A program made the translations under genes and the position numbers. DNA of 64,000 nucleotides from an uncultured delta proteobacterium (lineage in GTDB: Bacteria > Desulfobacterota > RBG-13-43-22). The stretch spans positions 1-64,000 of the forward strand of contig CAVUPH010000030.1 in assembly GCA_963743305.1 (NCBI GenBank), in the 5' to 3' direction. The notes beneath the pieces were generated by a model. It was not told where the DNA came from. It did not search any database and saw nothing but the letters and a program-made list of their open reading frames with translations. Positions 17,020 to 64,000 of the stretch are shown here, one piece after another (position 1 is the stretch's first letter; every line of letters begins with the position of its first letter).

Positions 17020-17306
17020 GCTGCTGCCAAAAGGTAGATCAATCGGACCTTTCTGCCCTTTACTTTCCTTTTAAACTTTTTTGCTTGAGGCTTAAGACGA
17101 TATTATTGCAAAGCAAAGTGGACTTCTAAAATAAAGACAGCCGGTGATATGGATGGGCGACAAAAAATAGAAGGGTGATCTAAAATATAAAAATGAAGGT
17201 TTGAGGTTTGAAACCGGTGGCTTTTAGGATGATAATCTCTTAATATCTATAAAATGGCTGGGTTCGCCCCCGGTTACCGAAAGCGAAAGAACCATAGGAA
17301 ATTCCA

Positions 17307-18110
17307 ATGTTTCATTGGTTTATCGATCGTCGCCGAGAGAAGCTCACCCAGACTCCTTTCCCTTCCTTATGGGAGGACATCATCCGCCGCAACGTTGCCC
17401 ACTACTGCATGCTGGAAGATGCCCAGCGTGCTCATCTGCGTGCCTTGATCCAGGTATTTATCGCCGAAAAAAATTGGGAGGGAGTTGGTGGACTGGAACT
17501 AACTGACGAAATTCGCGTCACGATTTCCGCTCAGGCCTGTCTGCTTTTACTGGGCCTGCCCCACAACTACTACCGTAACGTCGAATCCATCATCGTCTAT
17601 CCCTCCACTGTGGTTCCGCCTCAAAGCAGGCCGGGTTTCTTTGAAAATACATTCGCGCCGGTGGAGCTTGAACATCCCATTATCGGGCAGGCGTTCCGGC
17701 AGGGGCCGGTCATTATTGTCTGGGATGCCGCCCTGCGCGGCGGCCGCCACCCTGAGTCCGGTCACAACGTTATTTACCACGAGTTCGCCCATAAACTGGA
17801 TATGCTCGACGGCGCAGCCGACGGTACACCTCCACTGCGCGACCGGGATGAATACCGTGACTGGGTCATGACCTGTTCGCGCGAATACCTACGTCTCAAA
17901 CACGACATCGAAAAGGGCAAAAAATCTTTCCTCAGTGCCTACGGGGCAATCAACGAAGCGGAATTTTTCGCCGTCGCCACTGAACAATTCTTCGATCAGC
18001 CGCGGTTAATGATTAAGCAGGCACCGGACCTTTATCGTGTTTTACAGGAATACTACCGTCAGGATCCTTCCGAACGTGTGTCCCGGAATTACTGCACGGG
18101 AGAAAATTAA
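17307..18110 (+). CDS. Zinc-dependent peptidase, M90/MtfA family
   Basis: GHNVIYHEFAHKLD (HExxH), YGAINEAEFFAVATEQFF. Confidence 0.9.
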   Translation: MFHWFIDRRREKLTQTPFPSLWEDIIRRNVAHYCMLEDAQRAHLRALIQVFIAEKNWEGVGGLELTDEIRVTISAQACLLLLGLPHNYYRNVESIIVYPSTVVPPQSRPGFFENTFAPVELEHPIIGQAFRQGPVIIVWDAALRGGRHPESGHNVIYHEFAHKLDMLDGAADGTPPLRDRDEYRDWVMTCSREYLRLKHDIEKGKKSFLSAYGAINEAEFFAVATEQFFDQPRLMIKQAPDLYRVLQEYYRQDPSERVSRNYCTGEN

Positions 18111-18349: not shown

Positions 18350-18480
18350 AAAGGCTTGTTGATCCGGCAATCCCTACCGGGGATGGGGAAATGCGCGGGA
18401 AGGACCTCGACAGCCGACATCGCTTGGTAGGGTGTATCCATCTAAAGCCCCTCTTTCCCGATTTTCAATTTGGTATTCTT

Positions 18481-18636
18481 GACAACCTCGCAAAAAGTCC
18501 AAAAACCTGTCATTGCTTCCCCCGGACCTGATCCGGGGGAAGCAATCCCCACCATGGTAACTAACTGATTCTTGGGGATTGCTTCGTCGCTTCACTCCTC
18601 GCAATGACAGCACGGACGACTTTTTGCGAAACCATC
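18481..18636. mobile_element. MITE-like palindromic element, family A
   Basis: Terminal IRs tcgcaaaaagtc/gactttttgcga; internal gtcattgc...gcaatgac and gaagcaatcccc...ggggattgcttc. Confidence 0.75.
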
Positions 18637-44326: not shown

Positions 44327-44390
44327 GGTTGTTCTCCCTTTTGGGTGGGCACCCCTCCTTACCTGTCATGGCCAAAAGTGCGAAGCGTTT
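44327..44390. repeat. Repeat family B, short copy
   Basis: ggttgttctcccttttgggtgg...ccaaaagtgcgaagcg. Confidence 0.55.
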
Positions 44391-44394
44391 TTTT

Positions 44395-45465
44395 ATGACC
44401 ACCCCGTCCCTTTTTCCTATGAGAAAGTTAGTCTCCTGGTTTAATAAAAATCAGCGAACGATGCCCTGGCGCAGCGACCGCCATCCCTATACCGTTTGGG
44501 TGTCGGAGATAATGCTCCAGCAGACCCGGGTAGACCAGGTGGAGCCCTATTACCGACGGTTCATGGACCGGTTCCCCGATACTCGGGCGCTGGCGCGGGC
44601 GCCGCTGGAGAAAGTGCTGAAGGTTTGGGAGGGACTGGGATATTACAGCCGGGCCCGTCACCTGCACCAGAGCGCCGGTGAAATAGTCAACCAGCACGGC
44701 GGAATCTTCCCGGACCGCTATGCCGACCTGGTTGCGCTTCCCGGCATCGGACGCTCGACCGCCGGCGCCATCTTAAGCCTGGCCTTTGACCGGCCCTATC
44801 CGGTGTTGGACGGCAATATCAAACGGGTCCTGATCCGTTTTTACCATATTCGTCGGCCGGTGGGCGAGGCGGCCACGTTAAACGAATTGTGGCGGAAAGC
44901 CGAAGAGTTGCTCCCTTCCCGGAAACCCGGCCGGTTCAATGAAGCTCTGATGGAACTGGGCGCCCTGGTCTGCCTGCCGAGGAACCCGGCTTGCGGTCAC
45001 TGTCCTTTGCGGAAGACCTGCCTGGCCTTTCTCCACGGAAATCCTGAAAAACTGCCGCTTAAGACGCCGCGCCGGAAAATTCCCCATTACCAGGTCACGG
45101 CGGCCGTGATCCGGAAGGGCAAAAAGATTTTGATCACCCGGCGGCCGGAAAAAGGGCTTTTGGGCGGATTATGGGAATTCCCCGGGGGCAAGCAAAATCC
45201 GGGGGAATCCTTAGAAGAATGTCTGCGGCGGGAAATTGAAGAAGAGTTGGGGATTGAGATCTCGGTGGGCGAGTCGTTTATGCAGGTCAACCACGCCTAC
45301 AGTCATTTCAAAATTACCCTGCACCCCTTTTTCTGCCGTCACCTGAAAGGCCGCATTCAAAAAATAGGGGTTATGGATTACCGCTGGGTGACTTCGGCGG
45401 AACTAAGTGACTATGCCTTTCCCCGGGCCGACCGGAGAGTGATCGCCTACCTGACAAAATCCTGA
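44395..45465 (+). CDS. mutY: A/G-specific adenine glycosylase
   Basis: WVSEIMLQQT, WEGLGYYSRAR, LPGIGRSTAGA, LDGN, C-x6-C-x2-C-x5-C, C-terminal NUDIX-like domain. Confidence 0.97.
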   Translation: MTTPSLFPMRKLVSWFNKNQRTMPWRSDRHPYTVWVSEIMLQQTRVDQVEPYYRRFMDRFPDTRALARAPLEKVLKVWEGLGYYSRARHLHQSAGEIVNQHGGIFPDRYADLVALPGIGRSTAGAILSLAFDRPYPVLDGNIKRVLIRFYHIRRPVGEAATLNELWRKAEELLPSRKPGRFNEALMELGALVCLPRNPACGHCPLRKTCLAFLHGNPEKLPLKTPRRKIPHYQVTAAVIRKGKKILITRRPEKGLLGGLWEFPGGKQNPGESLEECLRREIEEELGIEISVGESFMQVNHAYSHFKITLHPFFCRHLKGRIQKIGVMDYRWVTSAELSDYAFPRADRRVIAYLTKS

Positions 45466-48580: not shown

Positions 48581-51500
48581 TCAGATTGGCCAAGAGGAAC
48601 GAACCGTCGTTCCCTGCCCCGGAGCCGACTCCACTTCAAAGCGACCGCCGGAAAGTTCCGTTCGGGCTTTTAGGCTTAAAAGCCCCAATCCTCCCCAGGG
48701 AGATTTCTTGGCGATCGTCTCCTCCAGGTCAAAGCCCTGCCCGTTGTCCGTCACGGTGAACTCCATCCGGTTGTCTTTCTTCAGAAGGCGAAGGAAGACC
48801 CGGTTCGCCTGGCTGTGTTGGGCGACGTTATTCAGTGTTTCCAGCAGGATTCTATAGATGACGATCTTGGCCGATGAGATGATCTCATGTTCAGCCAAGC
48901 CGTCCTGCCTCTCAGTGGTCAGGCCAGGATGGTTCTTTTCAAATTCTCGACAATACCAATCTATGGTGGCCAGGATGCCGATATCGTCGAGGACATAGGG
49001 CCACAGATCTCCCTGCATGGAACGGATTTTTCCCACCGCCTCGAGGAGGGCCGCCATGATGTTCTTCGATGTATCCTGTAAAACGGCCCGGTCCATCCGG
49101 TCCTGGTCCGCAAAGAGGCGTTCAACATCAAACCGGATGGCCACCAGCGTTTGCCAGACGTTATCATGGAGCTCATAAGAAACCCGCTTTCTTTCATTCT
49201 CCTGGGCGAAAACAAGCTGGGAAGATAGATCGGCCAGTTCCGCGGTCCGTTCCTTCACCCGATCTTCCAGCGTCTCGGTCAAATGTTGGAGTTCCGACGA
49301 TCGCTTTTGCAGTGCCTCTTCCGTTCGCTTGCGATCGGTAATGTCCTGTGACAGCACGGCGATATCCTGGCCCATAGAGACCACCGCGACCCGGAACCAA
49401 CGTTGCGGCAGAACGCCATCGGCTTCGTAGAGCATCTCCTGGACGCGGGTTTTCCCAGTCTCGGCCACCTGCTGATAGGTTTCTACGAACGCCGATCCAC
49501 GGTGGCCGGGAAACAGTTCCAGCAGGCTCCTTCCCGCCAGCGCGGACAGTTTCATGCCGACGATGTGTTCCATCGCGGCATTCGCATAGACCCAGGTGAA
49601 GTCCACGACGCGCCTCCGGGTATCGCGCACCGGCCGCAAGATGGAGAACCCGTCTGGCATAAGCTCCTGCGCGACGCGGAAGCGTTCTTCGCTCGCACGC
49701 AGCGCTATCTCGGCTTTGCGCTGCTCAGTAATCTCACGAATGGTGATGAAGCCGAGGACCATCTTGCCAGCGGCGTCGAAGATCGGGCAGCCGTTGTAGC
49801 TGGCATCGAACTCCAGGCCCGTGTCCTGGCGGTGCGCGTGAAACACCTGATTTTGGAAACGCTCGCCGCGCACGACGCGGGAAATCGGCCAATGGTCGAA
49901 GGAAAGAGGGCAGCCCTGGTCGTCCCAGCCCTGCCACGTGGCGGGCAGTTTTTCGAGAGCGATGCGCCCATCCTCTTGAACGGAATAGCCATGGAGGCGC
50001 AAGGACGCGGGGTTCTGGTAAATCATTCCCTGTGCATCAAAAAGCATCAACCCCTCGGACATATTTTCCGCGACCGAGCGGAATCGCTCCTCGCTCTCGC
50101 GCTGCGCCGCCTCGGCCTCTCGCAGTTTTGTTGAATCGAAGTAATAGCAGGTGACGCCGTATTGCCCTTCCGCTAGCATCATGCGGTGCAGTTCCCATTC
50201 GTAGGCTTCCTCGATTTCCACATCCTGGCGCGGGTTGATGAAATTCCGCGAGTAGTATGGCTCGCCGGTGTCGAGGGTGTGGCGGAAGTGGGCGATAATT
50301 TCCGCGGCGACGGGTTCGGGCCAGAGGATGCGCATGACCTCGTTAAAATCGCGTCCGATCACGGGCCGCACGTTCTGGAACGCGCCGGTTTGCGAACCGA
50401 TGTTCATCTGAGCGATCCGGAATTGTGAATCAACGACGTAGATGCCGAAGGGAGCCCGCTCGACCAATTCGGAAAACGTCTTCTGGCTCCGGCTGAACGC
50501 CGCCTCGGCGTGCTTGCGCTCAGTGATGTCGTGGAAGACGAGCACCACACCCGAGAGTCTGCCGTCCTCATCTCGTATCGGCGCCCCGCTATCATCGATC
50601 GGAATCTCTTTCCCGCTCTTTCCTACGAGAACCGTGTGATTCGCAAGACCTACAACAACACCTTCCTTGAGCACTTTGGCAACGGGGTCTTCAACTCGAT
50701 TACGGGTGTGCTCATTGATGATGTGAAATACATCGGCCACCGGCATCGCCGAGGCCTCGGAGATTGCCCAGCCCGTCAACTCTTCAGCGATCTTGTTCAT
50801 GAAAGTGATTTTACCCGAAAGATCGGTGGCAATAACCGCATCACCGACACTCGCCAGAATAGTACGATACTTCTCCTCACTTTCGCGAAGAGACATTTCA
50901 CGTTCCCGCACCTTCTCGGCCATCGATTCAAAAACATCCGCCAAGTCCTGGAATTCCGAAATCTTGTGGATGAGAAGGCTGCCTATTTTCCTCTCCGCGC
51001 CCGAGGGCCAGGGCGAAATTCCGCAGAGCCGCAATTGGGCTGGAGATTGTCCGGGAAAGGATCAGGGCAACTAAGAAGCCGAGTATTGAAACGGATAGAA
51101 AAAGAATCCCACTTTTTGAAATGTCCGATAGAATTGGGTTCACGACCTCTTCTTCTCTGGTCCCCGCAGTGGCGGCCCAGCCGATGGAGGTAACAGGGGT
51201 GAAACCGACCAACCGTTTCTTCCCTTCGAAAGGGGCATAAACTGTTGCGGCAACCTCTTTCCCTTTAAATACATCTTCAAGCTCGAGGATACTGCTTAAG
51301 CCAATTGCGTTCCTCCCACGTTGCTTCAATAGTGGGATAACGATAAACCAGGATGCCTTTCCGATCGACCAGGGCAAGGCCCCCTCCCGTGAATCGTTTG
51401 ACCCCTAACTCCTCATCAAGGAGCTCAGGTAAGATGCCTGCTATAATAATGCCAAGCAGCACGCCCTTTTCATTTCGAATCCCCCGGCTAATGGTAAAGC

Positions 51501-51972
51501 TCGGTTTTCCCGTTGTTCTGGACAGGAGCAAGTCGCTTATCACATAATCCTGTCCGGCAACAATTTGCTTGAAATAGTCACGGTCGTCTAACCGCATTCC
51601 AATAAACTGAGACCCGGTGGCTGAAAGGACGACCCCCGAAGGGTTCAACCAAAAAAACTGCCATATCCCTGGGTTGTCTGCCTGGCTTCTTAAAAGGATC
51701 CGGTCTCGATGCTCGGAGGATAATCCTGGGGACGAAGTCAACGCAAGTCCAATGGCTAATTCCTGGTGGAGAACATCTTTGACAAATCTTTCAAATGTCT
51801 TCCCGACTGCACGGGCGATTTCCAAATTGGCCTGAAGTCCCGAAGCCCGCCGCGCCTGAAAAGACTGATAGTAAAAATAAGCCTGAATACCCAAGACAGG
51901 GATGAGAACCAAAAGGAGGAGCAGGATCAACCTCTTTCGAATACTTCGCCCTCCTCTTTTTTTTGCCGCCAT
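48581..51972 (-). pseudogene. Cache/HAMP/multi-PAS NarX-type (HisKA_3) sensor histidine kinase; frameshifts near 51300 and 50990 (3' 817-aa frame intact)
   Basis: Three consecutive frames; ERKRVSYELHD, NVAQHS, DNGQGF, GLGLLSLKAR. Confidence 0.85.
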
Positions 51973-52089
51973 GCTCGACCTCCTTGCTCCAGATCCTCCG
52001 CACGCCCCGAACGTCATTGAGGTGAGTTGAGGGCGGAATATTCAATTCACCTCAAACGGGGTTCGTTTCCTTTATCCCACAGCCGGTGT

Positions 52090-52705
52090 TCAAATGGGCC
52101 ATGATACCCTGATAGCCGTCCCTTTCCCCAGGGCGGATTCAAGGTTGAAAGCCCCCCCTGAAAGCTGGGCTCGTTCTCTCATGGTGGAAAGACCCATTCG
52201 GCTTTTCGCGGTATCCAGGTTGAACCCTTTACCGTTGTCCTGTATCGCTAAACGTATCTTGCCCTCCTCTTTTTGAAGAGAGAGATGCACGAGGGTTGCC
52301 TGGCTATATTTTGCGACATTGTTCATGGCTTCCTGACAGATGCGAAAGATCGGCGTTTTTAGAGAATCAGCCACGTCAGGTTCTACTATTCCAATCTGAC
52401 TCTCCACCGAAATATGAGAATAGGTCTTTTGGTATTCCCGGCAGAACCAGTTGATGGCGGGAATAATCCCCAGGTCATCGAGGATCGATGGCCGAAGATC
52501 GGCCATGATCCGCCTGACTTCATTAATAATCTCGGTGACCTTCGAGCCGAGATCCTGCAGAGATTCAGGGCTGCTATTCCACTGTTTCATATCTTCAGCG
52601 ATTTTGTCAATTCTGAATCTCATTGCACCAAGAGAGGCCACGATGCTGTCATGAAGCTCCCCGGCAACCCTTTTCCTCTCATCCTCCTGGGCCGAGAGGA
52701 GAGCA
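52090..52705 (-). pseudogene. HisKA_3/HATPase histidine kinase, C-terminal fragment
   Basis: QEDERKRVAGELHD, NNVAKYS, DNGKGF; the 5' end stops at the 30-bp repeat. Confidence 0.85.
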
Positions 52706-52735
52706 GAAGAGGGGACGTTGGTTCTAAATTGCATT
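52706..52735. repeat. 30-bp direct repeat, second copy
   Basis: Identical to 45982-46011. Confidence 0.85.
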
Positions 52736-52825
52736 ATATGGAGGCTTGATAGGGTACCTAGTCGTCCAGGGCTGGGGCAAAGTCGCTGAAATGACTCCAG
52801 GGGCAGAGCGCAGAAGGAAAGGAGA

Positions 52826-53480
52826 GATGAAAACCGCTGCACCGATTTTGAGCAGGAAATCGGCTCTCCGGGCATGGCCCGGATAACCCGGGTAGACCAG
52901 GTGGAGCCCTATTACCGGCGGTTCATGGACCGGTTCCCCGATACTCGGACGCTGGCGCGGGCGCCGCTGGAGAAAGTGCTGAAGGCTTGGGAGGGGCTGG
53001 GATATTACAGCCGGGCCCTTCACCTGCACCAGAGCGCCCAAAAAATAGTCAACCAGCACGGCGGAATCTTCCCGGACCGCTATGCCGACTTGGTTGCGCT
53101 TCCCGGCATCGGACGCTCGACCGCCGGAGCCGTCTTAAGCCTGGCCTTTGACCGGCCCTATCCGGTGTTCGACGGCAATATCAAACGGGTCCTGATCCGT
53201 TTTTACCATATTCGTCGGCCGGTGGGCGAGGCGGCCACGTTAAACGAATTGTGGCGGAAAGCCGAAGAGTTGCTCCCTTCCCGGAAACCCGGCCGGTTCA
53301 ATGAAGCCCTGATGGAAAAAGGGCTTTTGGGCGGGTTATGGGAATTCCCCGGGGGCAAGCAAAATCCGGGGGAATCCTTATTCAAAAAATAGGGATTATG
53401 GATTATCGCTGGGTGACTTCGGCGGAGTTGGGCGAATACGCCTTTCCCCGAGCCGATCGGCGGGTGATCGCCTATCTGAC
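52826..53480 (+). pseudogene. mutY: Degraded duplicate: GNAT 3' fragment (52826-52892) fused to an internally deleted mutY copy
   Basis: Near-identical to 46649-46715 and 44524-45455, with deletions of about 195 bp and 142 bp. Confidence 0.92.
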
Positions 53481-53607
53481 GACGGGTGAAATGCCAGCCA
53501 AAGATATTTAATTTTTCTTGAACCATCCAGGAAACCCTGTAGAATGACCTTCGCGGGAATTTGGGCGACTTCCCGACACCTCCCAGACCGAAGGAGCCTC
53601 CCCTCCC

Positions 53608-56124
53608 TTGAAAATGTCTCAGCGCCTGGTCCAATGGGCGGGTTTTTTTCTTATCCTGGCCATCGCCCTGTATGGTGTTGATCGGCTCCTGCTTTTTATC
53701 AGAACGCCGCAAACCGGCATTTATGGGGTCTTCCGTTCCGGAGGCTATACCGTCCAGACCCTTGCCGACGCCCAGACTTCCCCTCTTCTGGAGGCCGGGC
53801 AGCGTATCATCGCCGTTGGCGGAATCCCCGTCTCGGCCTGGTTTCAATCGCTGCTTCGTATACCCCCGGGGGAAGGGCCCTCCTGGTCTATAGACCGGCC
53901 GCCATCTATCCTGGTAGCGGATCAAAAGGGCCGGAGCCGGACCACCATCCTTTATTTGAAACCTTTCTCGGCGAAGGACCTCTGGGGCCCTTTCCGGATC
54001 TGGTTTCTGGCCTGGTTTATTTTTTTCAGCGGGACGTACCTCTTTTTTCGTTTCCCCGATCAACTCCGGGTCCGTCTCCTTTCCCTGCTGCTGCTGGTGT
54101 CGGCCTTAAGTGTTTTCAATCACTCCGGCCGTCACCTGGCCATTGAAATGAGTTCCCGTCTGCCGCTGCTGACAGCCATCCGGTTCGGGACCCTTTCGTT
54201 CATCTTCTCCTCTTGGTTGTACCTCATCATTATTTTTCTAAATATCCGGGAGCATCTCCGCATCCATTCCTGGGTTCCCTGGGCAGTCTTTTTATTACCC
54301 CCCGCTTCGGCTCTCGGTGCCGTCTTTTTATCCGGCGGGGATCCCCTCTTTGGCTTCGAGTGGTCTTTACGGTTACTCCATCTGAACGCCGGGCTCGTTG
54401 TCGCTTTAACCATCACCATCCTCCTCCATTCTTTTTACACCACCCGAGATGCCGTCCTGAAGGCCCAGCTCAAATGGCTCATCTGGGGACATCTGCTGGG
54501 CATGTCCCCCTATATTCTGCTATATTCCCTGCCGATCGCCCTGGTCGGCGTTCCCGTGATTAATTACGGTATCAGTCTGGCCCCGCTGCCCTTGATCGTT
54601 TTTTCCTATTTTTTCGCCTTTTACCGCTACCGGATAATGGATGTTGACCGGGTTTTGGAAGGAAGCCTGGTATACGGCATCTCCGCCGCCATCCTTTCGC
54701 TGGTCTATCTGGCCACCTTATGGCTGATCAAAGAAAAATTCCTGGGCAGCCTGGCACCGGGCTCCTGGTTTCGCTCGGACTTTTTGATCCTGATCGGGCT
54801 GGCCTTCGGGTTCAATCCCTTGAAAAACCAGGTCCAGCGGGGGATTGAAAAGGCGCTCTTTCCGGAACGCATCGCCCTGCCGGCGCTGTTGCTGGAGGAG
54901 AGCGACCAATTATCCCGATCCTTCGACTTGAATGATCTGGCCACGGTGTTGCTCAGCAGCCTGCCCCAGAAACTGGCGATCGATCAGGCCGCCCTGTATT
55001 TGCGGAAGCCCTTTTCGGAAGACTGGGAACTCCGGACAAACCCCGGACGATGGCTGGCGGAAGTTCCTCAGGTCATAACTACCCTGGAGAACATGAGCAG
55101 AGAAGAACCGCTGAAACCGTTTTGGGACATCATCGGCTCCCATAAAGATCCCTCGGGTACGGAGAAAGCATTCGAATTTTTGGAAAAAAGCGGAGTGGCC
55201 TCCATTTTCCCCCTGATGAGCGGCGACGAACCCTGGGGCTTTTACCTGCTCGGAGGAAAGCGGACCAACCGCCTGCTGAACTCCGAAGAGGTCCACGTAA
55301 TCCGCACCCTGGCCACCCAGGCTGCCCATCAGGTGGGCAACGCCCGGCTGCTGGAAGGATTCCGGCAGACCAACCTCTCCCTGAGCGAGTTGACCGGCCG
55401 GCTGATGCAGGCTGAAAAAATGGCCAGTCTCGGCGAAGGGTCCGCCGTACTGGCTCACGAACTCAAAAACCCGCTGGGGATCATTCGGGGTTCCGCCGAA
55501 ATACTCCTTAAAAATCAAGACCCGGCCGGAAATGCCGAAGTACTGCATTTCATCCTCGATGAAACCGACCGCCTGACGGCCCTGGTGGAGGAGTTCATGC
55601 AGTTCGCCCGCATAGCCCCGCCGCAGAAGACTTATACCGACTTGAACGAACTGGTCCAGTCCGTAGCCTTTCTCTGGGAATCCAGGCGGAAAAGCGCGGT
55701 CCCGCTGACTATCCATTTTCGACTGGACCTCCCGGCGGGGAAAGTCCTCCTCGATTCCCGGCAGGTCTATCAGATTCTGTTGAACCTCTTCTCCAACGCC
55801 GAAGAGGCCATGCCCCTGGGAGGCGAATTGCTTCTGGCCACCGGAACGGATGAGTCTTCCGGGATGGCTTGGGCCTCCATCCAGGACACCGGAAAGGGAA
55901 TCCCGGAAAAAGATCTTCCCCGGGTATTGGACCGCTTTTTTACTACCAAGGAGTCCGGACTTGGCTTGGGTCTTGCTATAGCGAAAAAAGTTATGGAGGC
56001 CCACGGGGGTTCTATCCGGATAGAATCCACTCCAGGCAAAGGAACCCGGGTCACCCTGTTTTTTTCCCGGCAGGAAGATGTTGGGCCTTCACCCCCATCT
56101 TCCGATTTGAAAGGAGTATTTTGA
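53608..56124 (+). CDS. Membrane sensor histidine kinase: PDZ-like periplasmic domain, multi-TM, GAF, HisKA/HATPase
   Basis: LEAGQRIIAVGGIPV, about 8-9 TMs, RYRIMDVD, GAF-like WGFYLLGGK, LAHELKNPL, NAEEAM, DTGKGI, FFTTK.GLGLGLA. Confidence 0.92.
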   Translation: MKMSQRLVQWAGFFLILAIALYGVDRLLLFIRTPQTGIYGVFRSGGYTVQTLADAQTSPLLEAGQRIIAVGGIPVSAWFQSLLRIPPGEGPSWSIDRPPSILVADQKGRSRTTILYLKPFSAKDLWGPFRIWFLAWFIFFSGTYLFFRFPDQLRVRLLSLLLLVSALSVFNHSGRHLAIEMSSRLPLLTAIRFGTLSFIFSSWLYLIIIFLNIREHLRIHSWVPWAVFLLPPASALGAVFLSGGDPLFGFEWSLRLLHLNAGLVVALTITILLHSFYTTRDAVLKAQLKWLIWGHLLGMSPYILLYSLPIALVGVPVINYGISLAPLPLIVFSYFFAFYRYRIMDVDRVLEGSLVYGISAAILSLVYLATLWLIKEKFLGSLAPGSWFRSDFLILIGLAFGFNPLKNQVQRGIEKALFPERIALPALLLEESDQLSRSFDLNDLATVLLSSLPQKLAIDQAALYLRKPFSEDWELRTNPGRWLAEVPQVITTLENMSREEPLKPFWDIIGSHKDPSGTEKAFEFLEKSGVASIFPLMSGDEPWGFYLLGGKRTNRLLNSEEVHVIRTLATQAAHQVGNARLLEGFRQTNLSLSELTGRLMQAEKMASLGEGSAVLAHELKNPLGIIRGSAEILLKNQDPAGNAEVLHFILDETDRLTALVEEFMQFARIAPPQKTYTDLNELVQSVAFLWESRRKSAVPLTIHFRLDLPAGKVLLDSRQVYQILLNLFSNAEEAMPLGGELLLATGTDESSGMAWASIQDTGKGIPEKDLPRVLDRFFTTKESGLGLGLAIAKKVMEAHGGSIRIESTPGKGTRVTLFFSRQEDVGPSPPSSDLKGVF

Positions 56125-57485
56125 TGCCTCGCATCTTGGTGGTGGACGACGAAAATCGGTATTGCCGGATTTTAACTATGATGCTGCGGCCCGAACAGTA
56201 TGAAGTCGTGACGACGACCGAGGGAAAAGAAGCGGCCCGCCTGCTGGACGAACAGCCTTTCGACCTGATTCTTTCCGATTTGTTCATGGAGCCTTTCAGC
56301 GGTCTCGACCTCCTGCGACACCGCAATACCGTTTCTCCGGAGGTCCCTTTTATCGCCCTGACCGCCTTCGGTTCCATCCCCTCGGCCGTGGAGTTGATCA
56401 AGGGAGGGGCCTTTGACTACCTGGCCAAGCCCTTTCAGGAAGAAACCCTTTTGGCCGCCGTACGCAGCGCCCTGAAAGTCAAAGCCCTGGCCGAAGAAAA
56501 CCGCAACCTCCGGCAACTACTCCGGGAAAGCTTGGGCGATCCCCAATTTATTGGGGAATCCTCCGTCATTCAAACGCTATTGGAGCGGGTGAAGACCGTG
56601 GCCCGGACCGATTACACCGTCTTGCTCCTGGGGGAAACCGGCACCGGCAAGGACCTGATCGCCCAAATCATCCACCGGTTGGGGCCTTCCAAGGACGGCC
56701 CTTTCGTCAAGATCAACTGCGCCGCCATCCCCTCCGCGCTCCTGGAAAGCGAGCTCTTCGGGCATGAGAAGGGCGCCTTCACCGGGGCCGTTGCCCGGGC
56801 CAAGGGAAAATTCCAGTTGGCCCAAGGCGGAACCCTATTTCTGGATGAGATCAGTGAGTTGGATCTCCCTCTGCAGGCCAAGACCCTGCAGGCCATCGAG
56901 GATAAGCGCTTCTATCCTGTCGGGTCCACTAAACTGGCCGATGTCAACTGCCGGATCGTGGCCTCCAGCAACCGCTCCCTCAAAGAACTGTCCGAGCAGG
57001 GAAAATTCCGGCCGGACCTGCTGCACCGGCTCATGGCTTTTCCCCTTCATCTTCCTCCGCTGCGCGAGCGGAAAGAAGATATCCTGCCCCTGGCCGAACA
57101 CTATCTGCAGGTATTCGGAAAGGAGCTGGGCCTGGCCGGTTTGCGCCTTGGTGAACGGGCCTTGACGCTGTTGACGGCCTATCCCTGGCCGGGGAACGTG
57201 CGGGAACTGATGAACGTCCTCCGGTCGGCGGCCCTTTTGAACCGGGGGGAAACCATCGGCTTGGAGGCCCTGGCCGCCTACCCCGGGATCTGGGAAGAAA
57301 CCGAGGTGGAGGATATCCCCGCCAAATCCGAATCAATCGGCTCTCTCCCCACCTTGGCCGAAGCCGAGCGGGACCTGATTCGCCGGACCCTGGAGCACTG
57401 TAAAGGCAATAAAAGCCAGGCCGCCCGCACCCTGGACATCAGCCGCAGCCACTTGCGGTATCGGATGATGCTCCATGACCTGTGA
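56124..57485 (+). CDS. Sigma54-dependent response regulator (NtrC family)
   Basis: REC domain, GETGTGKD, ESELFGHEKGAFTGA, LFLDEI, WPGNVREL, Fis HTH; start overlaps the kinase stop. Confidence 0.96.
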   Translation: MPRILVVDDENRYCRILTMMLRPEQYEVVTTTEGKEAARLLDEQPFDLILSDLFMEPFSGLDLLRHRNTVSPEVPFIALTAFGSIPSAVELIKGGAFDYLAKPFQEETLLAAVRSALKVKALAEENRNLRQLLRESLGDPQFIGESSVIQTLLERVKTVARTDYTVLLLGETGTGKDLIAQIIHRLGPSKDGPFVKINCAAIPSALLESELFGHEKGAFTGAVARAKGKFQLAQGGTLFLDEISELDLPLQAKTLQAIEDKRFYPVGSTKLADVNCRIVASSNRSLKELSEQGKFRPDLLHRLMAFPLHLPPLRERKEDILPLAEHYLQVFGKELGLAGLRLGERALTLLTAYPWPGNVRELMNVLRSAALLNRGETIGLEALAAYPGIWEETEVEDIPAKSESIGSLPTLAEAERDLIRRTLEHCKGNKSQAARTLDISRSHLRYRMMLHDL

Positions 57486-57496
57486 TACCCTGTGGC

Positions 57497-57541
57497 GGTT
57501 GATATCAACCAGCATCTATTTTTTATTGGTTTATTTCAACC
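57497..57541. promoter_or_regulatory. Tandem palindromic enhancer (UAS) candidate
   Basis: Perfect GGTTGATATCAACC at 57497-57510 and GGTTTATTTCAACC at 57528-57541 (31-bp spacing). Confidence 0.65.
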
Positions 57542-57628
57542 GCCCACCATCTGTTTATCACCATCTTAAATTGTAATCGATCAGCCTTCTCCTGGGTAAT
57601 CTTTTAATTCTCCCCTTTTAGTGACCAT

Positions 57629-57782
57629 AATAAACTCGCAATAAGTCCCCGGGACAGCCATTGCGAGGAGTGAAGCGACGAAGCAATCCCCAATAATCAT
57701 CTACTTACCGAGGTGGGGATTGTTTCCCCCGGATCAAGTCTCGAGGTGCCATGACGGGTTTTCGACTTTTTGCGAAACCATC
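57629..57782. mobile_element. MITE-like palindromic element, family A
   Basis: ctcgcaataagtc...gactttttgcgaaaccatc ends; inner cattgcgaggagtgaagcgacgaagcaatcccc; homologous to 18481-18636. Confidence 0.75.
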
Positions 57783-57819
57783 GAATAATCATTCCTGAAT
57801 TCTAAATCTCTTGCCGACC

Positions 57820-57835
57820 GGGTATGAGATTTGCT
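57820..57835 (+). promoter_or_regulatory. Sigma54 -24/-12 promoter candidate
   Basis: GGGTATGAGATTTGCT (GG-N10-GC, TTGC). Confidence 0.6.
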
Positions 57836-57847
57836 TATATTTTCAAT

Positions 57848-60800
57848 ATGAGAATAAAAATAAGTCTGATGTTGTTTTTGGTTTTTACGGGTTTGAATTT
57901 TCTGGGGGCTTCTCCCGGTTCCTGCCTGGACATCATCGCCCAGGATGCCGGATTCGATCACACGGTAGCCTTGCGCAAGGATGGGACCGTTTGGACCTGG
58001 GGTTTAAATGGGTCAGGACAACTTGGCGACGGGTCCTGGACCAACAAAAACGTTCCGACCCGAGTGGCCGTGTTGACGGATATTATCCGGATTGCCGCCG
58101 GTTATTATCATAGCCTGGCCATAAAAAAGGACGGGACCCTCTGGGCCTGGGGCGCGAATGGAAACGGTCAACTGGGTGACGGCACCATAGATAACCGATC
58201 CACACCGATACAGGTGAAAGACCCTTCCGATCCTTCAACCTTTCTCACCAATGTCATCGCCGTGGCGGCGGGAGAGAGACATTCCCTGGTGCTCAAAGCC
58301 GATGGAACGGTCTGGTCCTGGGGTTACAACGGGAACGGCCGCCTTGGCGACGGGTCCTATACCGATAGCCGAATTCCTGTCAAAGTCAAGGACCCGACCG
58401 ATGCCTCGGGTTTTCTAACGGGGGTGAAGGCCATCGCAGCAGGCGCCGCGCATTCCATCGCTCTGAAAACCACCCAGACGGTTTGGACTTGGGGCAACCG
58501 GGATTATATGCAGATCGGACGAGACTTCCTGAACACGAATCCTCCCCAGAATGTGAGCGGCCAGGTGGCAGGTTTAACGAATATTATCGCCATCGCGGGA
58601 GGATGGGAACATACGGTGGTCCTCAAGGAGGGCGGTACGGTCTGGGCCGCCGGCCGCAACTTGGAGGGCCAGCTTGGAGATGGTACGACGATAGGATCCA
58701 CCCTGTCGTCTCCTATCAAGTTGTTTGTTCAAGTCATCGATTCCGCCGATCCCACCGGATACCTAACCGGGATCGTGGCCATCGATGCGGATGACCGGCA
58801 TACGGTGGCGGTGAAACAGAACGGGACGGTGTACGGATGGGGATGGAATTATGGGGGTAAGCTATGCGACAGTATTACTGACAACAAAATCACCCCCATA
58901 AAAATGAAAGATCCTTCCGACCCGACGACCTTCCTTTCGGGAGTATATAACGCAACCGCCGGTTCTAATTTCAACTTGATGCTCAAAACGGACGGCACAA
59001 TCTGGGGATGCGGCTATAACTACGCGGGACAACTTGGCACCGGTGCCTCCTCGGGGAACCCCATATCGACCCCGGTTCAAACCGTGATGCCGCCGCTCAA
59101 GTTGGTCTACCTCTGGGGCCTGGATTACATCGTCCCCGGGGAGGAAGCCACTTTTCTAGTGGCTTTTGAAAACCTCACCGCAACGGTCCTGGACCAGGCG
59201 GTGGTGGTCGTAGACTTTCCCAAGCAATTCAGGTACGTGTCCAGTACCGGAGGGGGAATCCATCGGGATGATCAGCCGACCAACCAGGTTTTCTGGAAGT
59301 TAGGCAATCTCCCCGCCGGGGCCAAGGGGCAGGTGACTTTAAAAGCCGAGGTCCCCTGGGGCATGCCGCTGCATAACTTCAACTTGGCCGCAGTGGAGAT
59401 CGGTGCCCGCAACACGACCCCTCGTTTTGACCTGGAGGAATACCTGATTTGGCAACCGAACCTGGTCTCCGAAACAAAAATGACTCCGGCGGAGATTCAA
59501 CAGCAATTAACCCAGGACCCCAACCTGCAGCCGTTGCTCCAGTACGCGACCCAGACCATGGGCCGCTTCATATTTTTAAACGTGGCCAAACGGTTTGAAT
59601 ACCGGGATGGAACCGAGATGACCTGTTTTACCCTGCTGGATACCCAAAGCTTCGGACCAGCCTTTCTTTACAGCAACGGGCGGGCGGCGTTCATCGAAAA
59701 ATTCGACGGATCGAAAATAATCCGTTTTGACTCCCAGGGGGGGTATAGCGAGGACCTGGTGGACGGATCTTTTCGGGTCTGGGGGCGCTGGGCGGAAACC
59801 ACCGGCATTTTGTCCGAATCTCGGGCCTCCGCAACGGCGCCGAGTCTAAACGATGATGTCACCCCCGCTCATAACGTTGCCCTCTGCATGACGAACTGCA
59901 TGGTGAACCGTGGCTTTCGCTCACTATCGAGGCTGAGGGATTTAATTTATGAGGAGGAAATCAACCTTACTAGCGATTGTCAGGTCTGTCTCGTGTCCTT
60001 GGGATATAATGTGTTGTCTGAAGACGCCTGCATTAAATGCATGGGGGCCTGGGATGATTCCAGAGAAAACAATACTGGAATAGCCGGGGAATGCCTTTAC
60101 GATTGCAAGAAAAATCCCCTTCATCATATCTGCACCCAGGACAGCCGGTATTGTGAACAATCTCTCGATGACCTGGATATGGGAGAGGACTACTTTGGGA
60201 TGGTTGCCGCATTAAGACGTTGTGACCCCAAAACCGGAACTTATGAAAACTTCACCTGGAAGCTAAACTGTTCCTATTCACTTCTCGAAGAATGCCGTGG
60301 CGGGGTCTGTATATCAGGCAAGCCGAATTGCCCCGGTCGACAGCCGGAGGCGAATACGCCGCTTCCCCTGAACCTTCCCGGTTTGATTGCTAATGGCAAT
60401 CTCACCGGAACTGCCGGATGTCCCATTGAATTCATGAATACTTTGCTCTTTGAGACCCGGACGGCCCATGACCCGAATATCAAGTCATCCAATGTAAAAG
60501 GAGACGTTTTGCCCGGAGAAAGCGTCACCTACACGGTGGAATACGAAAACCTGGGGGCCGGAACGGCCTACGGGGTGTATATCCTCGACCCGCTGGATAC
60601 CAACCTGGATGAAAGCACCCTGGCGATCAACAACGGCGGATCGTACCAGGCTCCAATCCACTTGCTGACCTGGGATATCGGCACCGTTGTCCCCGGCGGC
60701 AAAGGTTCCGTTTCCTTCAGCGTCAAGGTCAAGGCCGGAGTGGCCGCCGGGACCAGCATCGTCAACCAGGCGCAGGTCTATTTCCCCAGCGCCAATGAAG

Positions 60801-61843
60801 TGACGCCCACCAATGCGGTCATCCATCAGGTGAGAGGCCTGGTAGCCAACCCTCAGATACTAAATGCCATTTCCGGTTCACCCCTGTCCCTTACCTTGAC
60901 CGGAAAAGACTCCGGTTCGAAACCCCTTACCTTTCAGATAACCTCCCCGCCGGGATTTGGAACACTAAGCGGTACACCGCCGGCTTTGATCTATACTTCC
61001 ATGGAAGAATTCATCGGTCAGGACATCTTTACCTTTGCGGTGAATAACGGACTTGAGACCAGCCCCCCGGCACTGGTCAAGGTCAATGTTTCCGTCAACC
61101 CGCAGGATATTAAGCCCCCGAAAGTCACCGACACGTCGCCCAAGACAGGGGCCGCCGGCGTTCACCTGACCGCTATCCCCATCCAGTCCAACCCGGATCG
61201 TTTTGCCCCGCGGATTACGGCCGTTTTCTCAGAGCCCCTGGACGGTTCGACCGTTACCGGCAACACCTTCATCCTTAACGGGGGGCTCACCGGTCAGATC
61301 CTCTATAACGACCTCACCAGGACGGCCTATTATATCCCCACCAAGGCCCTCAACTACTCTACTACCTATACCGCCCGGCTCACGACCGGCATTAAAGACA
61401 AAAAAGGGAACCCCCTGGCCGCGGAGTATTCCTGGCAGTTTACCACCGAGAGCCCGATTAATCTCCAGGTCGCCCTTCCGGATCTGGCGAACGAGATTAA
61501 TTTTGGGGATCAGGCGGTCAACGTCCTTTCCCTGGCCAAAACAGTTTCCCTGGCCAGCACCGGCATGGCCAACTTAAATTTGGGAACCGCGTCTTTGACC
61601 GGAACAAACGGTGCAGATTTTAGAATTCTAGCAGATTCCTGTTCGGGGAAAACCTTAGCGCCTTCCCGGGAATGCGCGATCCAGATGGCCTTCCAGCCCC
61701 TTTCCGCCGGTCAGAGGAGCGGGTCCCTTTCCATCCCTTCCAATGACCCGGACCTGCCTTCGACAAATATACTTTTAAAAGGACAGGGGATCGGTTCAGG
61801 CCCCCCCTGGTTCATTTGGCTGCCGCTCATAATGCGGCCTTAG
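57848..61843 (+). CDS. Large secreted protein: RCC1 beta-propeller, DUF11, Cys-rich region, DUF11-like, Ig-like (Big) domains, ASH/choice-of-anchor D-like domain, WLPLIMR tail
   Basis: About 7 repeats of H.....DGTVWxWG.N..GQLGDG; YTVEYENLG; PPKVTDTSP...AVFSEPLD; GSLSIPSNDPD; ends WFIWLPLIMRP. Start moved downstream of the promoter. Confidence 0.9.
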   Translation: MRIKISLMLFLVFTGLNFLGASPGSCLDIIAQDAGFDHTVALRKDGTVWTWGLNGSGQLGDGSWTNKNVPTRVAVLTDIIRIAAGYYHSLAIKKDGTLWAWGANGNGQLGDGTIDNRSTPIQVKDPSDPSTFLTNVIAVAAGERHSLVLKADGTVWSWGYNGNGRLGDGSYTDSRIPVKVKDPTDASGFLTGVKAIAAGAAHSIALKTTQTVWTWGNRDYMQIGRDFLNTNPPQNVSGQVAGLTNIIAIAGGWEHTVVLKEGGTVWAAGRNLEGQLGDGTTIGSTLSSPIKLFVQVIDSADPTGYLTGIVAIDADDRHTVAVKQNGTVYGWGWNYGGKLCDSITDNKITPIKMKDPSDPTTFLSGVYNATAGSNFNLMLKTDGTIWGCGYNYAGQLGTGASSGNPISTPVQTVMPPLKLVYLWGLDYIVPGEEATFLVAFENLTATVLDQAVVVVDFPKQFRYVSSTGGGIHRDDQPTNQVFWKLGNLPAGAKGQVTLKAEVPWGMPLHNFNLAAVEIGARNTTPRFDLEEYLIWQPNLVSETKMTPAEIQQQLTQDPNLQPLLQYATQTMGRFIFLNVAKRFEYRDGTEMTCFTLLDTQSFGPAFLYSNGRAAFIEKFDGSKIIRFDSQGGYSEDLVDGSFRVWGRWAETTGILSESRASATAPSLNDDVTPAHNVALCMTNCMVNRGFRSLSRLRDLIYEEEINLTSDCQVCLVSLGYNVLSEDACIKCMGAWDDSRENNTGIAGECLYDCKKNPLHHICTQDSRYCEQSLDDLDMGEDYFGMVAALRRCDPKTGTYENFTWKLNCSYSLLEECRGGVCISGKPNCPGRQPEANTPLPLNLPGLIANGNLTGTAGCPIEFMNTLLFETRTAHDPNIKSSNVKGDVLPGESVTYTVEYENLGAGTAYGVYILDPLDTNLDESTLAINNGGSYQAPIHLLTWDIGTVVPGGKGSVSFSVKVKAGVAAGTSIVNQAQVYFPSANEVTPTNAVIHQVRGLVANPQILNAISGSPLSLTLTGKDSGSKPLTFQITSPPGFGTLSGTPPALIYTSMEEFIGQDIFTFAVNNGLETSPPALVKVNVSVNPQDIKPPKVTDTSPKTGAAGVHLTAIPIQSNPDRFAPRITAVFSEPLDGSTVTGNTFILNGGLTGQILYNDLTRTAYYIPTKALNYSTTYTARLTTGIKDKKGNPLAAEYSWQFTTESPINLQVALPDLANEINFGDQAVNVLSLAKTVSLASTGMANLNLGTASLTGTNGADFRILADSCSGKTLAPSRECAIQMAFQPLSAGQRSGSLSIPSNDPDLPSTNILLKGQGIGSGPPWFIWLPLIMRP

Positions 61844-61939
61844 GGAAAACCTGATCGGAGGCCTCTGCCTCTGATCCTGAAAAAACCCTAACGCCGGACG
61901 GTCCGTCTGTTCCGAGGACCGGTCGGGACTTCTGCCTTC

Positions 61940-62079
61940 CCCTCTCTGGCCGAGGCCGAGCGGGACCTGATCCGCCGTGCCCTGGAGCACTTCAAAGGGA
62001 AGAAGAACCAAGCCGCCAAACTGCTGGGCATCAGCCGCAGCCATCTGCGCTACCGGATGAAGCTGCATAATTCGCCCTG
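61940..62079 (+). pseudogene. Diverged copy of the response-regulator 3' end (Fis-type HTH only)
   Basis: PSLAEAERDLIRRALEHFKGKKNQAAKLLGISRSHLRYRMKLH versus PTLAEAERDLIRRTLEHCKGNKSQAARTLDISRSHLRYRMMLH at 57347-57485. Confidence 0.85.
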
Positions 62080-62128
62080 ATTTCCCATGGACCAATCGGT
62101 TCAAATCGGCCAGAAGAAAAGATGAACT

Positions 62129-62173
62129 GGTTGATATCAACCGACTTGAAAATCGGCTCTTCCTTTATCAACA
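62129..62173. promoter_or_regulatory. Second palindromic enhancer candidate
   Basis: Perfect GGTTGATATCAACC at 62129-62142; TATCAAC half-site offset by 31 bp, as in the first copy. Confidence 0.65.
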
Positions 62174-62224
62174 TTTACTATTGGATTTTATTAAGTTTTC
62201 CAACTGCCGCCGCTTCTCTGATTC

Positions 62225-62240
62225 CGGCGCAGAAAATGCA
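62225..62240 (+). promoter_or_regulatory. Sigma54 -24/-12 promoter candidate
   Basis: CGGCGCAGAAAATGCA (GG-N10-GC). Confidence 0.55.
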
Positions 62241-62356
62241 TTACATCGGAAGTGAAGGCGTGTAGCCTATAGCTTGAAGCAACCGTCAGCTTGTTTTCAG
62301 CCATCTTTTTTAGAAGCCAGTTCATAAGAAAACTCATCTGAATGGGAGGAGATTTT

Positions 62357-62896
62357 ATGAATGCTAATCGATCCGCGGCAGGACGTATTCTTCGTTTCGC
62401 GGTACTGGGTATGGTTTTTCATTTATTCGTTTTTACCATGAACGGTGACGCGGGAAAATTACAAAATGGTTCTACCTGGAAAATTTTCCTCCCTCTATTA
62501 AGCACAGAACCCCTTTCTCCTGCTCAGTTGGCTTTTATAGGGCAAATCGGCTATCCACAACAATTTGTTAAAATGTTTTCGCATGAAGGATCAAAAGCGC
62601 GAGTCGATGAAATCTGGGTATATACCCCGCAAAAGATAGCGGAGCATTTCATCAACGGAGTATTTGTCAAAGAATCGACCTTTTCCGGCACCTATGCCGC
62701 CAGCGCTCCCTCTGTTTATAAACCCCAGGACTTTCATCATGGCACAGCGATTCAGGATATCGTTGCCCGATTCGGTCAACCTTCCTCTCAAAAACAAGAA
62801 ACCGTCTGGAACGGCACCCTGAAAACCTATGTGTATCCATCCATTTTTTTTGTCTTTAATAACGATCTGTTAGTCTCTCTAACCGCCCTGCGATAA
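62357..62896 (+). CDS. Secreted hypothetical protein with an IFLPLL motif after the signal peptide
   Basis: GGAG RBS, signal peptide, WKIFLPLLS, C-terminal DIVARFGQPS (SmpA/OmlA-like fold hint). Confidence 0.75.
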   Translation: MNANRSAAGRILRFAVLGMVFHLFVFTMNGDAGKLQNGSTWKIFLPLLSTEPLSPAQLAFIGQIGYPQQFVKMFSHEGSKARVDEIWVYTPQKIAEHFINGVFVKESTFSGTYAASAPSVYKPQDFHHGTAIQDIVARFGQPSSQKQETVWNGTLKTYVYPSIFFVFNNDLLVSLTALR

Positions 62897-62923
62897 GTTT
62901 TCATTTCCGGAGGACATTTCAAC

Positions 62924-64000
62924 ATGAAACCCAACCGAATCTTTTTGGGACAAGAAGGACTGATCGGGGTCGTCGTCGTGGTCACCCTCTCCATAATCGG
63001 CACCCTGGGGCTACTGGTTATGAATGGCCCGGATGCCGTTAATCAATACAATAACTCTTTACACCGTATCCGGACTGAAAGCCCAACGAATGAAGATATG
63101 CAATACGTAGCCGATAATCTCGGTAGCCTTACCGATGCCGCCGGAGGGATTACCTATACCAACGGGTGCGGATGATGTTCTCGCCACACCACTGCTAGTC
63201 ATAATAAATGGCTCGGTGGAAATGGGCAGCAAGCCTATTCCAGACCGCACTCAGGGATTCGGCCAACGTGGCCAGGTGGTTGCATGCGGCATAACGGTCG
63301 ACAAAACACTCGCCAAACCCGGAGATTATGTTACGGCTACGATTGCCATCCCCACACCCTTTCAAAGTAAAATAAGCAGAATCGTCGGGGAAGCCGGTGC
63401 GGAAGGTTTTGGAGTATCTCCCGCCGGCGGAACGAATACTTTTAGTATTCCTTGCTCCAATGAAACAAGTCTTTTCCAGGTCCGTTTTGATGCTTATGAC
63501 CATCAGGGGGGGATTGCCTGCTCAGGATCCGTTTCGGTGAATATTGATTTTTCCACGCTTTTGACCACGCTGATATCTCCCACGGGGACCATCGATTCTC
63601 ACCTGCCAACTTATAAATGGAATGCGATTTGCGGCGCCAAATCGTATTGGTTACAGGTAGATGATACCACCAAAAGGGGTAAGATCTACGAGGGTTATTC
63701 CTCTTCGGAAGCGGGTTGTGCTTCGGGGACCGGCACCTGTTCCGTGACGCCATCGGTCAGCATAGCAGATGGGAATGCGACCTGGTGGGTAGCCGCCTGC
63801 CATGCGGTAGCCTGCGGAGCCTGGAGCAATGCCCTGGGATTCATTGTTGGTGCAGCCCAGGATCCCATCGTGGGACTCTGGAGCACAGGTGACGGGGGAC
63901 AGGCCCTGATGGCGAAAGGCACTAACTATCAATTTGAGGCCAAGGTCACCCAGCAGGGAACCTGGTGGACCGAACGCGGCATCATGGTAGGGAACGTGGT
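62924..64000 (+). CDS. Secreted protein with prepilin-like N-terminus and FN3-like domain; one frameshift near 63146; runs off the window
   Basis: GQEG|LIGVVVVVTL. The shifted frame is open from ~63150 to 64000: ...LISPTGTI...PTYKWNAICGAKSYWLQVDD...GCASGTGTCSVTP...WWVAAC. Confidence 0.7.

Follow-up and report, generated by a model that had tools for sequence, protein, structure and literature searches.

Organization of the locus

The DNA analyzed here is a 64-kb stretch (hereafter the window) from an uncultured sulfate-reducer-type bacterium, and our subject is the gene array at its right-hand end, where a membrane histidine kinase and a sigma-54 activator are followed by two cassettes of genes for secreted proteins. 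Each cassette contains a pair of palindromic operator sites and a sigma-54-type promoter, and a non-coding copy of the end of the activator gene, including its helix-turn-helix (HTH) codons, lies at the junction between the two. The features are as follows (aa, amino acids; TM, transmembrane helix; ORF, open reading frame).

53608..56124, + strand: sensor histidine kinase, with TM1, a PDZ-like extracytoplasmic domain (about aa 35-120), a membrane bundle, a weak GAF-like region, HisKA and HATPase_c (Pfam, NCBIfam, AlphaFold2 (AF2) models, Foldseek)
56124..57485, + strand: NtrC-family sigma-54 activator, 453 aa, with REC (PF00072), Sigma54_activat (PF00158), PF25601 and HTH_8 (PF02954) and the GAFTGA motif
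57497..57541, no strand assigned: candidate enhancer of cassette 1, with site A GGTTGATATCAACC at 57497-57510 and site B GGTTTATTTCAACC at 57528-57541, 31 bp start to start
57635..57778, + strand: repeat element of ~144 bp between the enhancer and promoter of cassette 1, with the core 28-mer TTGCGAGGAGTGAAGCGACGAAGCAATC
57820..57835, + strand: sigma-54-type promoter 1, GGGTATGAGATTTGCT, with GG at 57821-22 and GC at 57833-34; homologous to GGGTATGGGATTTGCT in the related loci L001 and L002
57848..61843, + strand: cargo 1, secreted, ~1331 aa, with a signal peptide, an RCC1 propeller, DUF11, Ig-like domains and choice-of-anchor D; tail PPWFIWLPLIMRP
61844..61937, + strand: left flank of the cassette junction, common to six scar junctions and absent from the activator gene (alignment)
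61938..62080, + strand: activator-tail scar, a non-coding copy of activator codons ~407-453 (HTH), from alignments; a TAA in its frame lies at 61889-61891
62097..62142, no strand assigned: candidate enhancer of cassette 2, with the degenerate site A GGTTCAAATCGGCC at 62097-62110 and the perfect site B GGTTGATATCAACC at 62129-62142, 32 bp apart
62225..62240, + strand: sigma-54-type promoter 2, CGGCGCAGAAAATGCA, 96 bp past site B
62357..62896, + strand: cargo 2a, 179 aa, secreted or anchored, with the Shine-Dalgarno sequence GGGAGGAG upstream and a YLP-like motif after the signal anchor
62924..63998, + strand: further ORFs of cassette 2, an 83-aa single-TM protein (62924-63175) and one of at least 288 aa (63135-63998) that leaves the window; no family match

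An earlier reading of this stretch, the original prediction, had described the kinase, the activator and both cassettes, and all of its elements were found at or near the positions that it gave. The ATG of the activator gene at 56124 overlaps the kinase stop as TGATG, with AAAGGAG upstream, and the database copy of the kinase has 836 aa, counted from the ATG at 53614.

We aligned 17 kinase orthologs and retrieved 12 loci, each with 10-kb flanks, from one-genome-per-species contigs. L012, which matched the kinase core only, and L008, on a 2.5-kb contig that was too short, were set aside; the remaining 10 related loci are all from metagenome-assembled genomes (MAGs) labeled Thermodesulfobacteriota or "delta proteobacterium", with L002 and L010 coming from the same MAG. 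The kinase gene is followed by the activator gene in all 10 of these loci, and 17 cassettes were counted with the window included. We scored as a strict site pair any two sites with at most two mismatches each and a spacing of 29-33 bp, and as a promoter any GG-N10-GC match with at least four of seven extra consensus positions.

Paired operator sites and sigma-54-type promoters

The operator consensus is GGTTGA-WW-TCAACC, with sites placed about three helical turns apart. Site A of cassette 1 is an exact palindrome 11 nt past the activator stop and site B of that cassette has two mismatches. The original prediction gave each cassette a perfect palindrome with a second site 31 bp away, which is accurate for cassette 1, while in cassette 2, where the pair is orthologous to that at 22406/22437 of L001, the partner lies upstream, is degenerate and is 32 bp distant. 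With up to three mismatches allowed, the palindrome occurs eight times in the 64 kb, against a mean of 2.66 in shuffled sequence, and none of 100 shuffles reached eight.

A site pair with a spacing of 29-33 bp follows the activator stop in 10 of the 10 related loci, and strict pairs are present in 14 of the 17 cassettes (273,191 nt) but in none of 100 first-order Markov resamplings. Of the 16 cassettes that extend far enough, 15 have a GG-N10-GC match 96-292 nt past site B, and in 12 the distance is 126-155 nt; the background is 0.48 matches per kb per strand. The palindrome had been expected to lose its significance if it occurred only in this genome or apart from sigma-54 promoters and secreted proteins; what we find is the opposite, an association with sigma-54 promoters in all 10 related loci. 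Because this layout is kept in related genomes, we consider it a real, though mechanistically conventional, regulatory module, in which the switch, not the cargo, is the conserved part. Judged from sequence, the locus is probably a dedicated two-component, enhancer-dependent switch for large surface or secreted proteins, built as a cis-linked cassette array.

The palindromes might instead form the activator's terminator, its autoregulatory operator, or the recombination sites of mobile, integron-like cassettes. In favor of such roles, site A lies just past the activator stop, the palindrome can form a 5-bp hairpin, 62142-62129 (minus strand) was picked up by a terminator scan, and the cassettes do move. 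However, the stem is short, there is no T-run on the plus strand within 2 nt at 57511 or 62143, no integrase or recombinase adjoins the array in the window, and the pair is kept in loci that have a single cassette. Moreover, the sites are always paired about three turns apart and hold a conserved distance to a -24/-12 promoter, even where no live activator gene lies upstream. We consider these other roles unlikely and favor the enhancer.

Several observations weigh against the switch as described. One site of the pair is degenerate in window cassette 2 (site A), in L005 and in L007, and cassette 1 of L001 has no GG-N10-GC match. Promoters in the window's clade match weakly, at 4-5/7, where those of distant loci score 6-7/7 (TGGCACAGGGGTTGCA in L011 is one example). 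The ~144-bp repeat of window cassette 1 widens the usual enhancer-promoter gap of ~130 bp to 292 bp. The same cassette lacks the 60-130-nt leader of its orthologs in L001, L002 and L010; with this leader missing, the ATG at 57848 nearly abuts the predicted transcription start, which lies ~2 nt before it, and the window copy of cassette 1 may be impaired or leaderless. Finally, all loci are MAG contigs, and L010 is rich in frameshifts and is possibly a low-quality or strain-variant copy.

These last two points would also suit an explanation of the repeated layout as an assembly artefact or chance similarity within a metagenome bin. The copies of the activator tail in the window differ from one another (79% identity), as old paralogs would and unlike collapsed repeats, and the same junction, with orthologous flanks, is present on four contigs from three MAGs (the window, L001, and L002/L010). 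The failure of any of the shuffles to reach eight palindromes and of any of the resamplings to yield a strict pair speaks against chance. We find an artefact scarcely credible, and treat the layout as genuine.

The ~144-bp repeat is absent from the orthologous cassettes of L001, L002 and L010. Its other copy lies at about 18470-18610 on the minus strand and includes an exact second copy of the 28-mer TTGCGAGGAGTGAAGCGACGAAGCAATC at 18577-18604(-). Short repeats similar to this element are found in many anaerobe genomes.

Activator-tail scars and cassette order

The tail copy ahead of cassette 2 is 79% identical to the activator gene over 131 nt without gaps (61938-62068 versus 57346-57476), with homology continuing through both operator sites, and its translation shares 74% identity (E 1.4e-15) with activator residues 407-452. 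With the activator as query, tblastn located further copies of the tail, two in L001 and one each in L002 and L010, and alignment of the junctions added a decayed copy in cassette 2 of L002. The proposal that the regulator tail and enhancer were copied ahead of new cargo genes is borne out by this recurrence of tail-copy cassettes in L001, L002 and L010. The six junctions now known have the same breakpoint, with the tail and both operator sites at right and a left flank of ~60 nt or more, and because the right-hand content and the left flank are common to all, we conclude that the six derive from one event.

We read the tail copy, from its sequence, as a duplication scar and not a gene. Alternatively, 61938-62080 could be a functional small gene, its product a separate Fis-like HTH protein that competes at the operator or modulates it. 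Four of the six copies do have an open frame with its stop at about the same place, these four are 74-87% identical in protein sequence to the live tail, and three of the four scar-to-scar comparisons give a ratio of nonsynonymous to synonymous substitution rates (dN/dS) below 1. But the window copy has no in-frame ATG, GTG or TTG and is preceded by the TAA 16 codons upstream, a stop immediately precedes the copy in L001 cassette 2, which lacks a start codon, two of the six copies (L002 cassette 2 and L010 cassette 2) are frameshifted by 1-nt deletions, and the scars of L001 cassettes 2 and 3 carry Leu-to-Pro changes within the HTH. The dN/dS over 39 codons, a small sample, is 0.35-1 from scar to scar versus 0.08-0.18 among live activators, which fits relaxed constraint on the scars. 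The very high identity of some copies to the live gene of the same genome fits gene conversion: the scar of L001 cassette 3 is 97% identical to the L001 activator tail versus 86% to its positional ortholog in the window, and this greater closeness to its own activator points to gene conversion at that scar. We judge a functional HTH gene very unlikely and keep to the duplication scar.

The order of the cassettes varies. The RCC1 cassette is first in the window and in L010, second in L001, where it comes after a DUF5122-propeller cassette, and third in L002. Between L002 and L010 the kinase-activator block has 92% nucleotide identity and the cassette order is permuted. Loci more distant from the window have a single cassette, with no scar found within 10 kb.

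A 10-bp stem-loop lies at 61853-61876, just past the cargo stop, and the fold z-score of 61835-61945 is -4.5. It is also found at the same place in cassette 2 of both L002 and L010; in cassette 3 of both L001 and L002 an insertion breaks it up. Because of that interruption and the lack of a U-tract, we rejected this stem-loop as a terminator or RNA element; an Rfam search of 53000-64000 returned no matches at E<=1.

The activator and the sensor kinase

The HTH of the activator, NKSQAAR.LGISRSHLRYRM, is nearly invariant among 10 orthologs, alongside the conserved operator. In distant loci the kinase gene contains the sigma-54 consensus TGGCACGRRAGTTGCT within its final 36-84 nt, at 7/7 in L004 (position 12424), L005 (12412), L006 (12403), L009 (12394) and L011 (12366) and at 6/7 in L007 (10139). 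In these loci a gap separates the kinase and activator genes. The window's clade lacks the intragenic match, which could be an internal promoter driving the activator gene or simply reflect the coding of a conserved G-T-x-V-A.

The kinase has HisKA and HATPase_c domains (Pfam), whereas nothing in its ~600 N-terminal residues matches a Pfam family at E<=0.01. Weak matches to GAF families are seen in 7 of the 17 aligned orthologs (best E 8e-5). There are 24 close kinase homologs, at 47-100% identity, below which identity drops to <=34%. The AlphaFold model, made with the 17 orthologs, is confident only for residues 1-340, where TM1 (5-32) is followed by a beta domain (38-116) and then by long bundled helices (122-339). 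When the beta domain was modeled alone with nine orthologs, the predicted local distance difference test score (pLDDT, AF2) was 85, and the top matches of this isolated model to the Protein Data Bank (PDB) by Foldseek were all PDZ domains, of DegS, CtpA, DegP and HtrA, although the best of them, with E 1.5e-3 and TMq 0.58, is modest. Foldseek with the whole kinase model returned kinase cores only, and no PDZ domain was detected by Pfam across the 17 orthologs, even at E<=1. By its fold, and by that criterion only, the assignment of the outer domain as PDZ-like is reasonable. Of the PDZ/multi-TM/GAF architecture first proposed for the kinase, then, the multi-helix membrane part is reproduced by the model, the PDZ is seen by fold only, and the GAF is weak.

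The PDZ domains of DegS, CtpA/Prc and DegP, envelope proteases that read C-terminal peptides, are among the top structural matches of the kinase's outer domain, and the best match is to DegS with a bound YQF peptide. The kinase has a conserved G-x-[YF]-G-x-F, putatively the carboxylate-binding loop, at the position where such a loop would be expected. It differs from these proteases in that the domain is fused to a kinase and lacks a protease domain, in that sequence models are blind to the PDZ, and in that the structural match is modest. When the PDZ-like domain was modeled in complex with the C-terminal 40 residues of the RCC1 cargo, the score was 0.02, and we draw no inference from it. A literature search on PDZ-domain sensor kinases gave no characterized example among the matches listed.

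Cargo proteins and the LPL motif

The ORF of cargo 1 spans 1339 aa, but because its upstream ATG at 57824 falls within the promoter, 57848 is the likelier start. As had been predicted, genes for secreted proteins lie downstream in all cassettes, and the cargo in all loci consists of large secreted proteins of varied fold (Pfam, 22 downstream ORFs). These include RCC1, DUF5122 or Kelch propellers with Ig-like domains, DUF11/CARDB proteins and proteins ending in SLH domains (L009), as well as right-handed beta-helix/PMP proteins (L003, L006, L011 and the family of L009 and L002 cassette 2) and RHS proteins behind a CsgG-like lipoprotein (L004, L005). The cargo of L002 cassette 2 is 65-69% identical to the SLH-ended cargo of L009.

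Two observations concern single cargo types. At 4573-6020 of L002, the first cassette has three small ORFs instead of one large protein, with lipoprotein-like N-termini ending in Cys; the second of the three is DUF2846. In the beta-helix cargo, the first ~200 aa share 80-85% identity among L003 (6517-7119), L006 (14175-14774) and L011 (14154-14672), loci whose kinases are ~48-50% identical, which suggests exchange or very strong constraint.

The original prediction gave the cargo a shared LPL motif and took it for a sorting tag different from that of PEP-CTERM systems. In cargo 1 the motif is at the C-terminus, and in cargo 2a (KIFLPLLS) it is near the N-terminus, at T40-L48 (KIFLPLL; nt ~62474-62500), right after the signal anchor, so that the two stand at opposite protein ends. 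Among 1237 stop-to-stop frames of at least 80 aa in the window and 12 loci, five end in LP-x-[ILVM][ILVM]-[RK], and all five are cassette cargo. The tail is kept in four RCC1 orthologs, down to 54% identity, and the tails of L001 (LFLPLILR, then the stop) and L002 (LYLPHILR, then the stop) have five synonymous and two replacement codon differences, a synonymous excess that indicates selection on the peptide. Other choice-of-anchor-D relatives have classic TM-plus-basic anchors at the tail position. Of 120 Ig-repeat proteins related to the L001 cargo, about 10 end in ...[YF]LP..R (five found by script, the rest by eye), and small homologs of cargo 2a have, by eye, a post-signal FLP(L/A) or (V/I)Y(Q/G)LL(L/F), a regular expression having flagged 1 of 47.

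Two NCBIfam models, NF050076 ("sort_motif_YLP") and NF053834 ("ultrashort_CTERM"), which are known here by name only, describe a "YLP-box putative sorting motif", and the tails ...WLPLIMRP, ...FLPLILR and ...YLPHILR, each directly before the stop, and the internal ...IFLPLL... fit the 11-position model over (nearly) its full length. They differ in that the window motifs score under the curated cutoff: against NF050076 (cutoff 15), the window tail reaches 13.4 bits and the N-terminal motif 12.1 bits. The tails of L001, L002 and L010 gave no match. A database Ig-repeat protein, P0237, ending in ...IYLPLVFR, passes NF053834 with 15.0 bits (cutoff 10). We found no paper on a bacterial YLP-box, a literature search for LPLILR-type strings returned hornet and frog antimicrobial peptides only, and no sorting enzyme was found encoded in the window.

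As a selected feature of the cargo, the LPL motif stands, on the combined evidence of tail frames, orthologs and codon differences. We take it to be real, selected and already curated as a putative tag; resembling the YLP-box, it is not new. Nor is it general to the system, since within the related loci the LPL tail occurs only in the window's clade, and more distant cargo ends in SLH domains or unrelated tails.

Comparison with known systems

The activator shares with NtrC-type regulators (NtrC at glnAp2, XylR/DmpR, AtoSC, ZraSR) a REC domain, an AAA+ domain (GAFTGA) and a Fis-type HTH. Its best NCBIfam matches are AtoC (378 bits) and NtrC (370 bits), and the kinase core matches AtoS. A further likeness is the presence of two dyads about three turns apart, ~100-150 bp upstream of a -24/-12 promoter, and paired dyads about three turns apart upstream of such a promoter are the classic NtrC-family geometry. 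The differences are that the scores stay below every equivalog cutoff, that the kinase combines a PDZ-like outer domain with a large membrane bundle, and that the targets are surface proteins in a scar-marked array. We know of no characterized NtrC-type member that uses GGTTGA-WW-TCAACC as its operator.

PrsK/PrsR/PrsT comprises a membrane kinase and a sigma-54 activator that are proposed, in the available text of the source, to control sorted surface proteins encoded in numerous single-gene operons (PMC1569441). The likeness to PrsK/PrsR, as that text describes the pair, lies in a kinase with a sigma-54 activator, an upstream motif with a sigma-54 motif, and surface-protein targets. Among the best 25 of 79 NCBIfam matches to the kinase, the PrsK model TIGR02916 is the only one that reaches the sensor region, and it aligns aa 340-818 with model positions 214-677 at 103.9 bits, where the cutoff is 300. 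The activator scores 326.6 bits against TIGR02915 (cutoff 502.6), lower than against AtoC (377.7) or NtrC (369.5).

The original prediction described the two proteins as a PrsK/PrsR-like pair and ascribed a conserved upstream palindrome to PEP-CTERM systems. With both models below cutoff, the first description fails in the sense of membership. As to the second, the upstream element of PEP-CTERM genes is given as a motif containing TTTACA together with a sigma-54 motif (Haft et al. 2006, PMC1569441), and the string "palindrom" occurs 0 times in the available text of that paper; the operator here, GGTTGA-WW-TCAACC, is thus different from the TTTACA motif found there. The targets, as far as is visible, are cis-linked rather than dispersed. 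NCBIfam found no PEP-CTERM in the four cargo ORFs of the window, no PrsT-like conserved neighbor lies upstream of the kinase across the loci, and the 64-kb window contains no PrsT- or exosortase EpsH-type gene. We rejected membership in PrsK/PrsR on account of the two sub-cutoff scores, the other operator, and the lack of PEP-CTERM and of a PrsT-like neighbor. The system appears to work like an NtrC-type enhancer system and, in purpose, to be like PrsK/PrsR.

Flanking DNA

No conserved gene lies upstream of the kinase across the loci (10-kb flanks). In the window, 52874-53392 (+), directly upstream of the kinase, is a truncated copy of a MutY-like gene found 8 kb away at 44329-45465 (+); the two are 87% identical over 165 aa, after which the copy jumps to a fragment of the NUDIX part. 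It has the appearance of a scar left by rearrangement at the locus boundary. Three adjacent ORFs at 48581-52875 (-) are pieces of HisKA_3-type sensor kinases (three PAS domains plus kinase; dCache alone; kinase core alone) and may represent a split or decayed kinase gene. Farther away, an IS200-like (Y1_Tnp) ORF at 12645-13694 (-) sits beside a low-GC stretch, 14000-18000 (0.43-0.47 versus ~0.55), which is full of ORFs without family matches.

Proposed mechanism and implications

In the mechanism that we propose, the membrane kinase would sense an envelope signal through its PDZ-like domain, its membrane bundle and/or its GAF-like domain, and would phosphorylate the activator. From family knowledge and from the conservation of the sites, activator dimers are expected to occupy both GGTTGA-WW-TCAACC sites and to assemble an AAA+ ring, which would contact, by looping, the -24/-12 promoter ~130-155 bp downstream and open the sigma-54 holoenzyme complex there. 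The unit of enhancer pair and promoter, as read in the sequence, is repeated ahead of successive cargo genes, and the extra units each carry an inactive copy of the final ~46 activator codons and the common left flank. The presence of scar and common flank in each extra unit argues for one ancestral tandem duplication with its left breakpoint inside the activator gene. Kept similar by gene conversion, the scars could then serve as homology arms for the duplication, deletion and reordering of cassettes. In the window's clade, the cargo carries a short, YLP-box-like putative tag.

A bolder version, which we hold to be rather unlikely, has one PDZ-sensing kinase and one enhancer-binding protein controlling a recombining surface repertoire, with the scars, refreshed by gene conversion, as portable homology arms through which strains would gain, lose and reorder cassettes, and with the PDZ domain reading the YLP-box-like ends of cargo, either exported or unassembled, thereby closing a feedback loop. 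If that were true, the kinase and activator would be the first dedicated regulator for the YLP-box tag.

For an uncharacterized two-component family of uncultured Thermodesulfobacteriota, the analysis supplies a candidate operator (two copies of GGTTGA-WW-TCAACC), promoter and regulator set, with the largest surface proteins of the cell as the proposed outputs of the switch. It draws attention to a histidine kinase whose sensor domain looks PDZ-like, and in one clade it gives the YLP-box, curated but unstudied, a specific regulatory setting. It also suggests a simple route by which an enhancer-dependent regulon may grow in cis: a tandem duplication with its breakpoint in the regulator gene would leave a scar, and the scar would favor more exchange.

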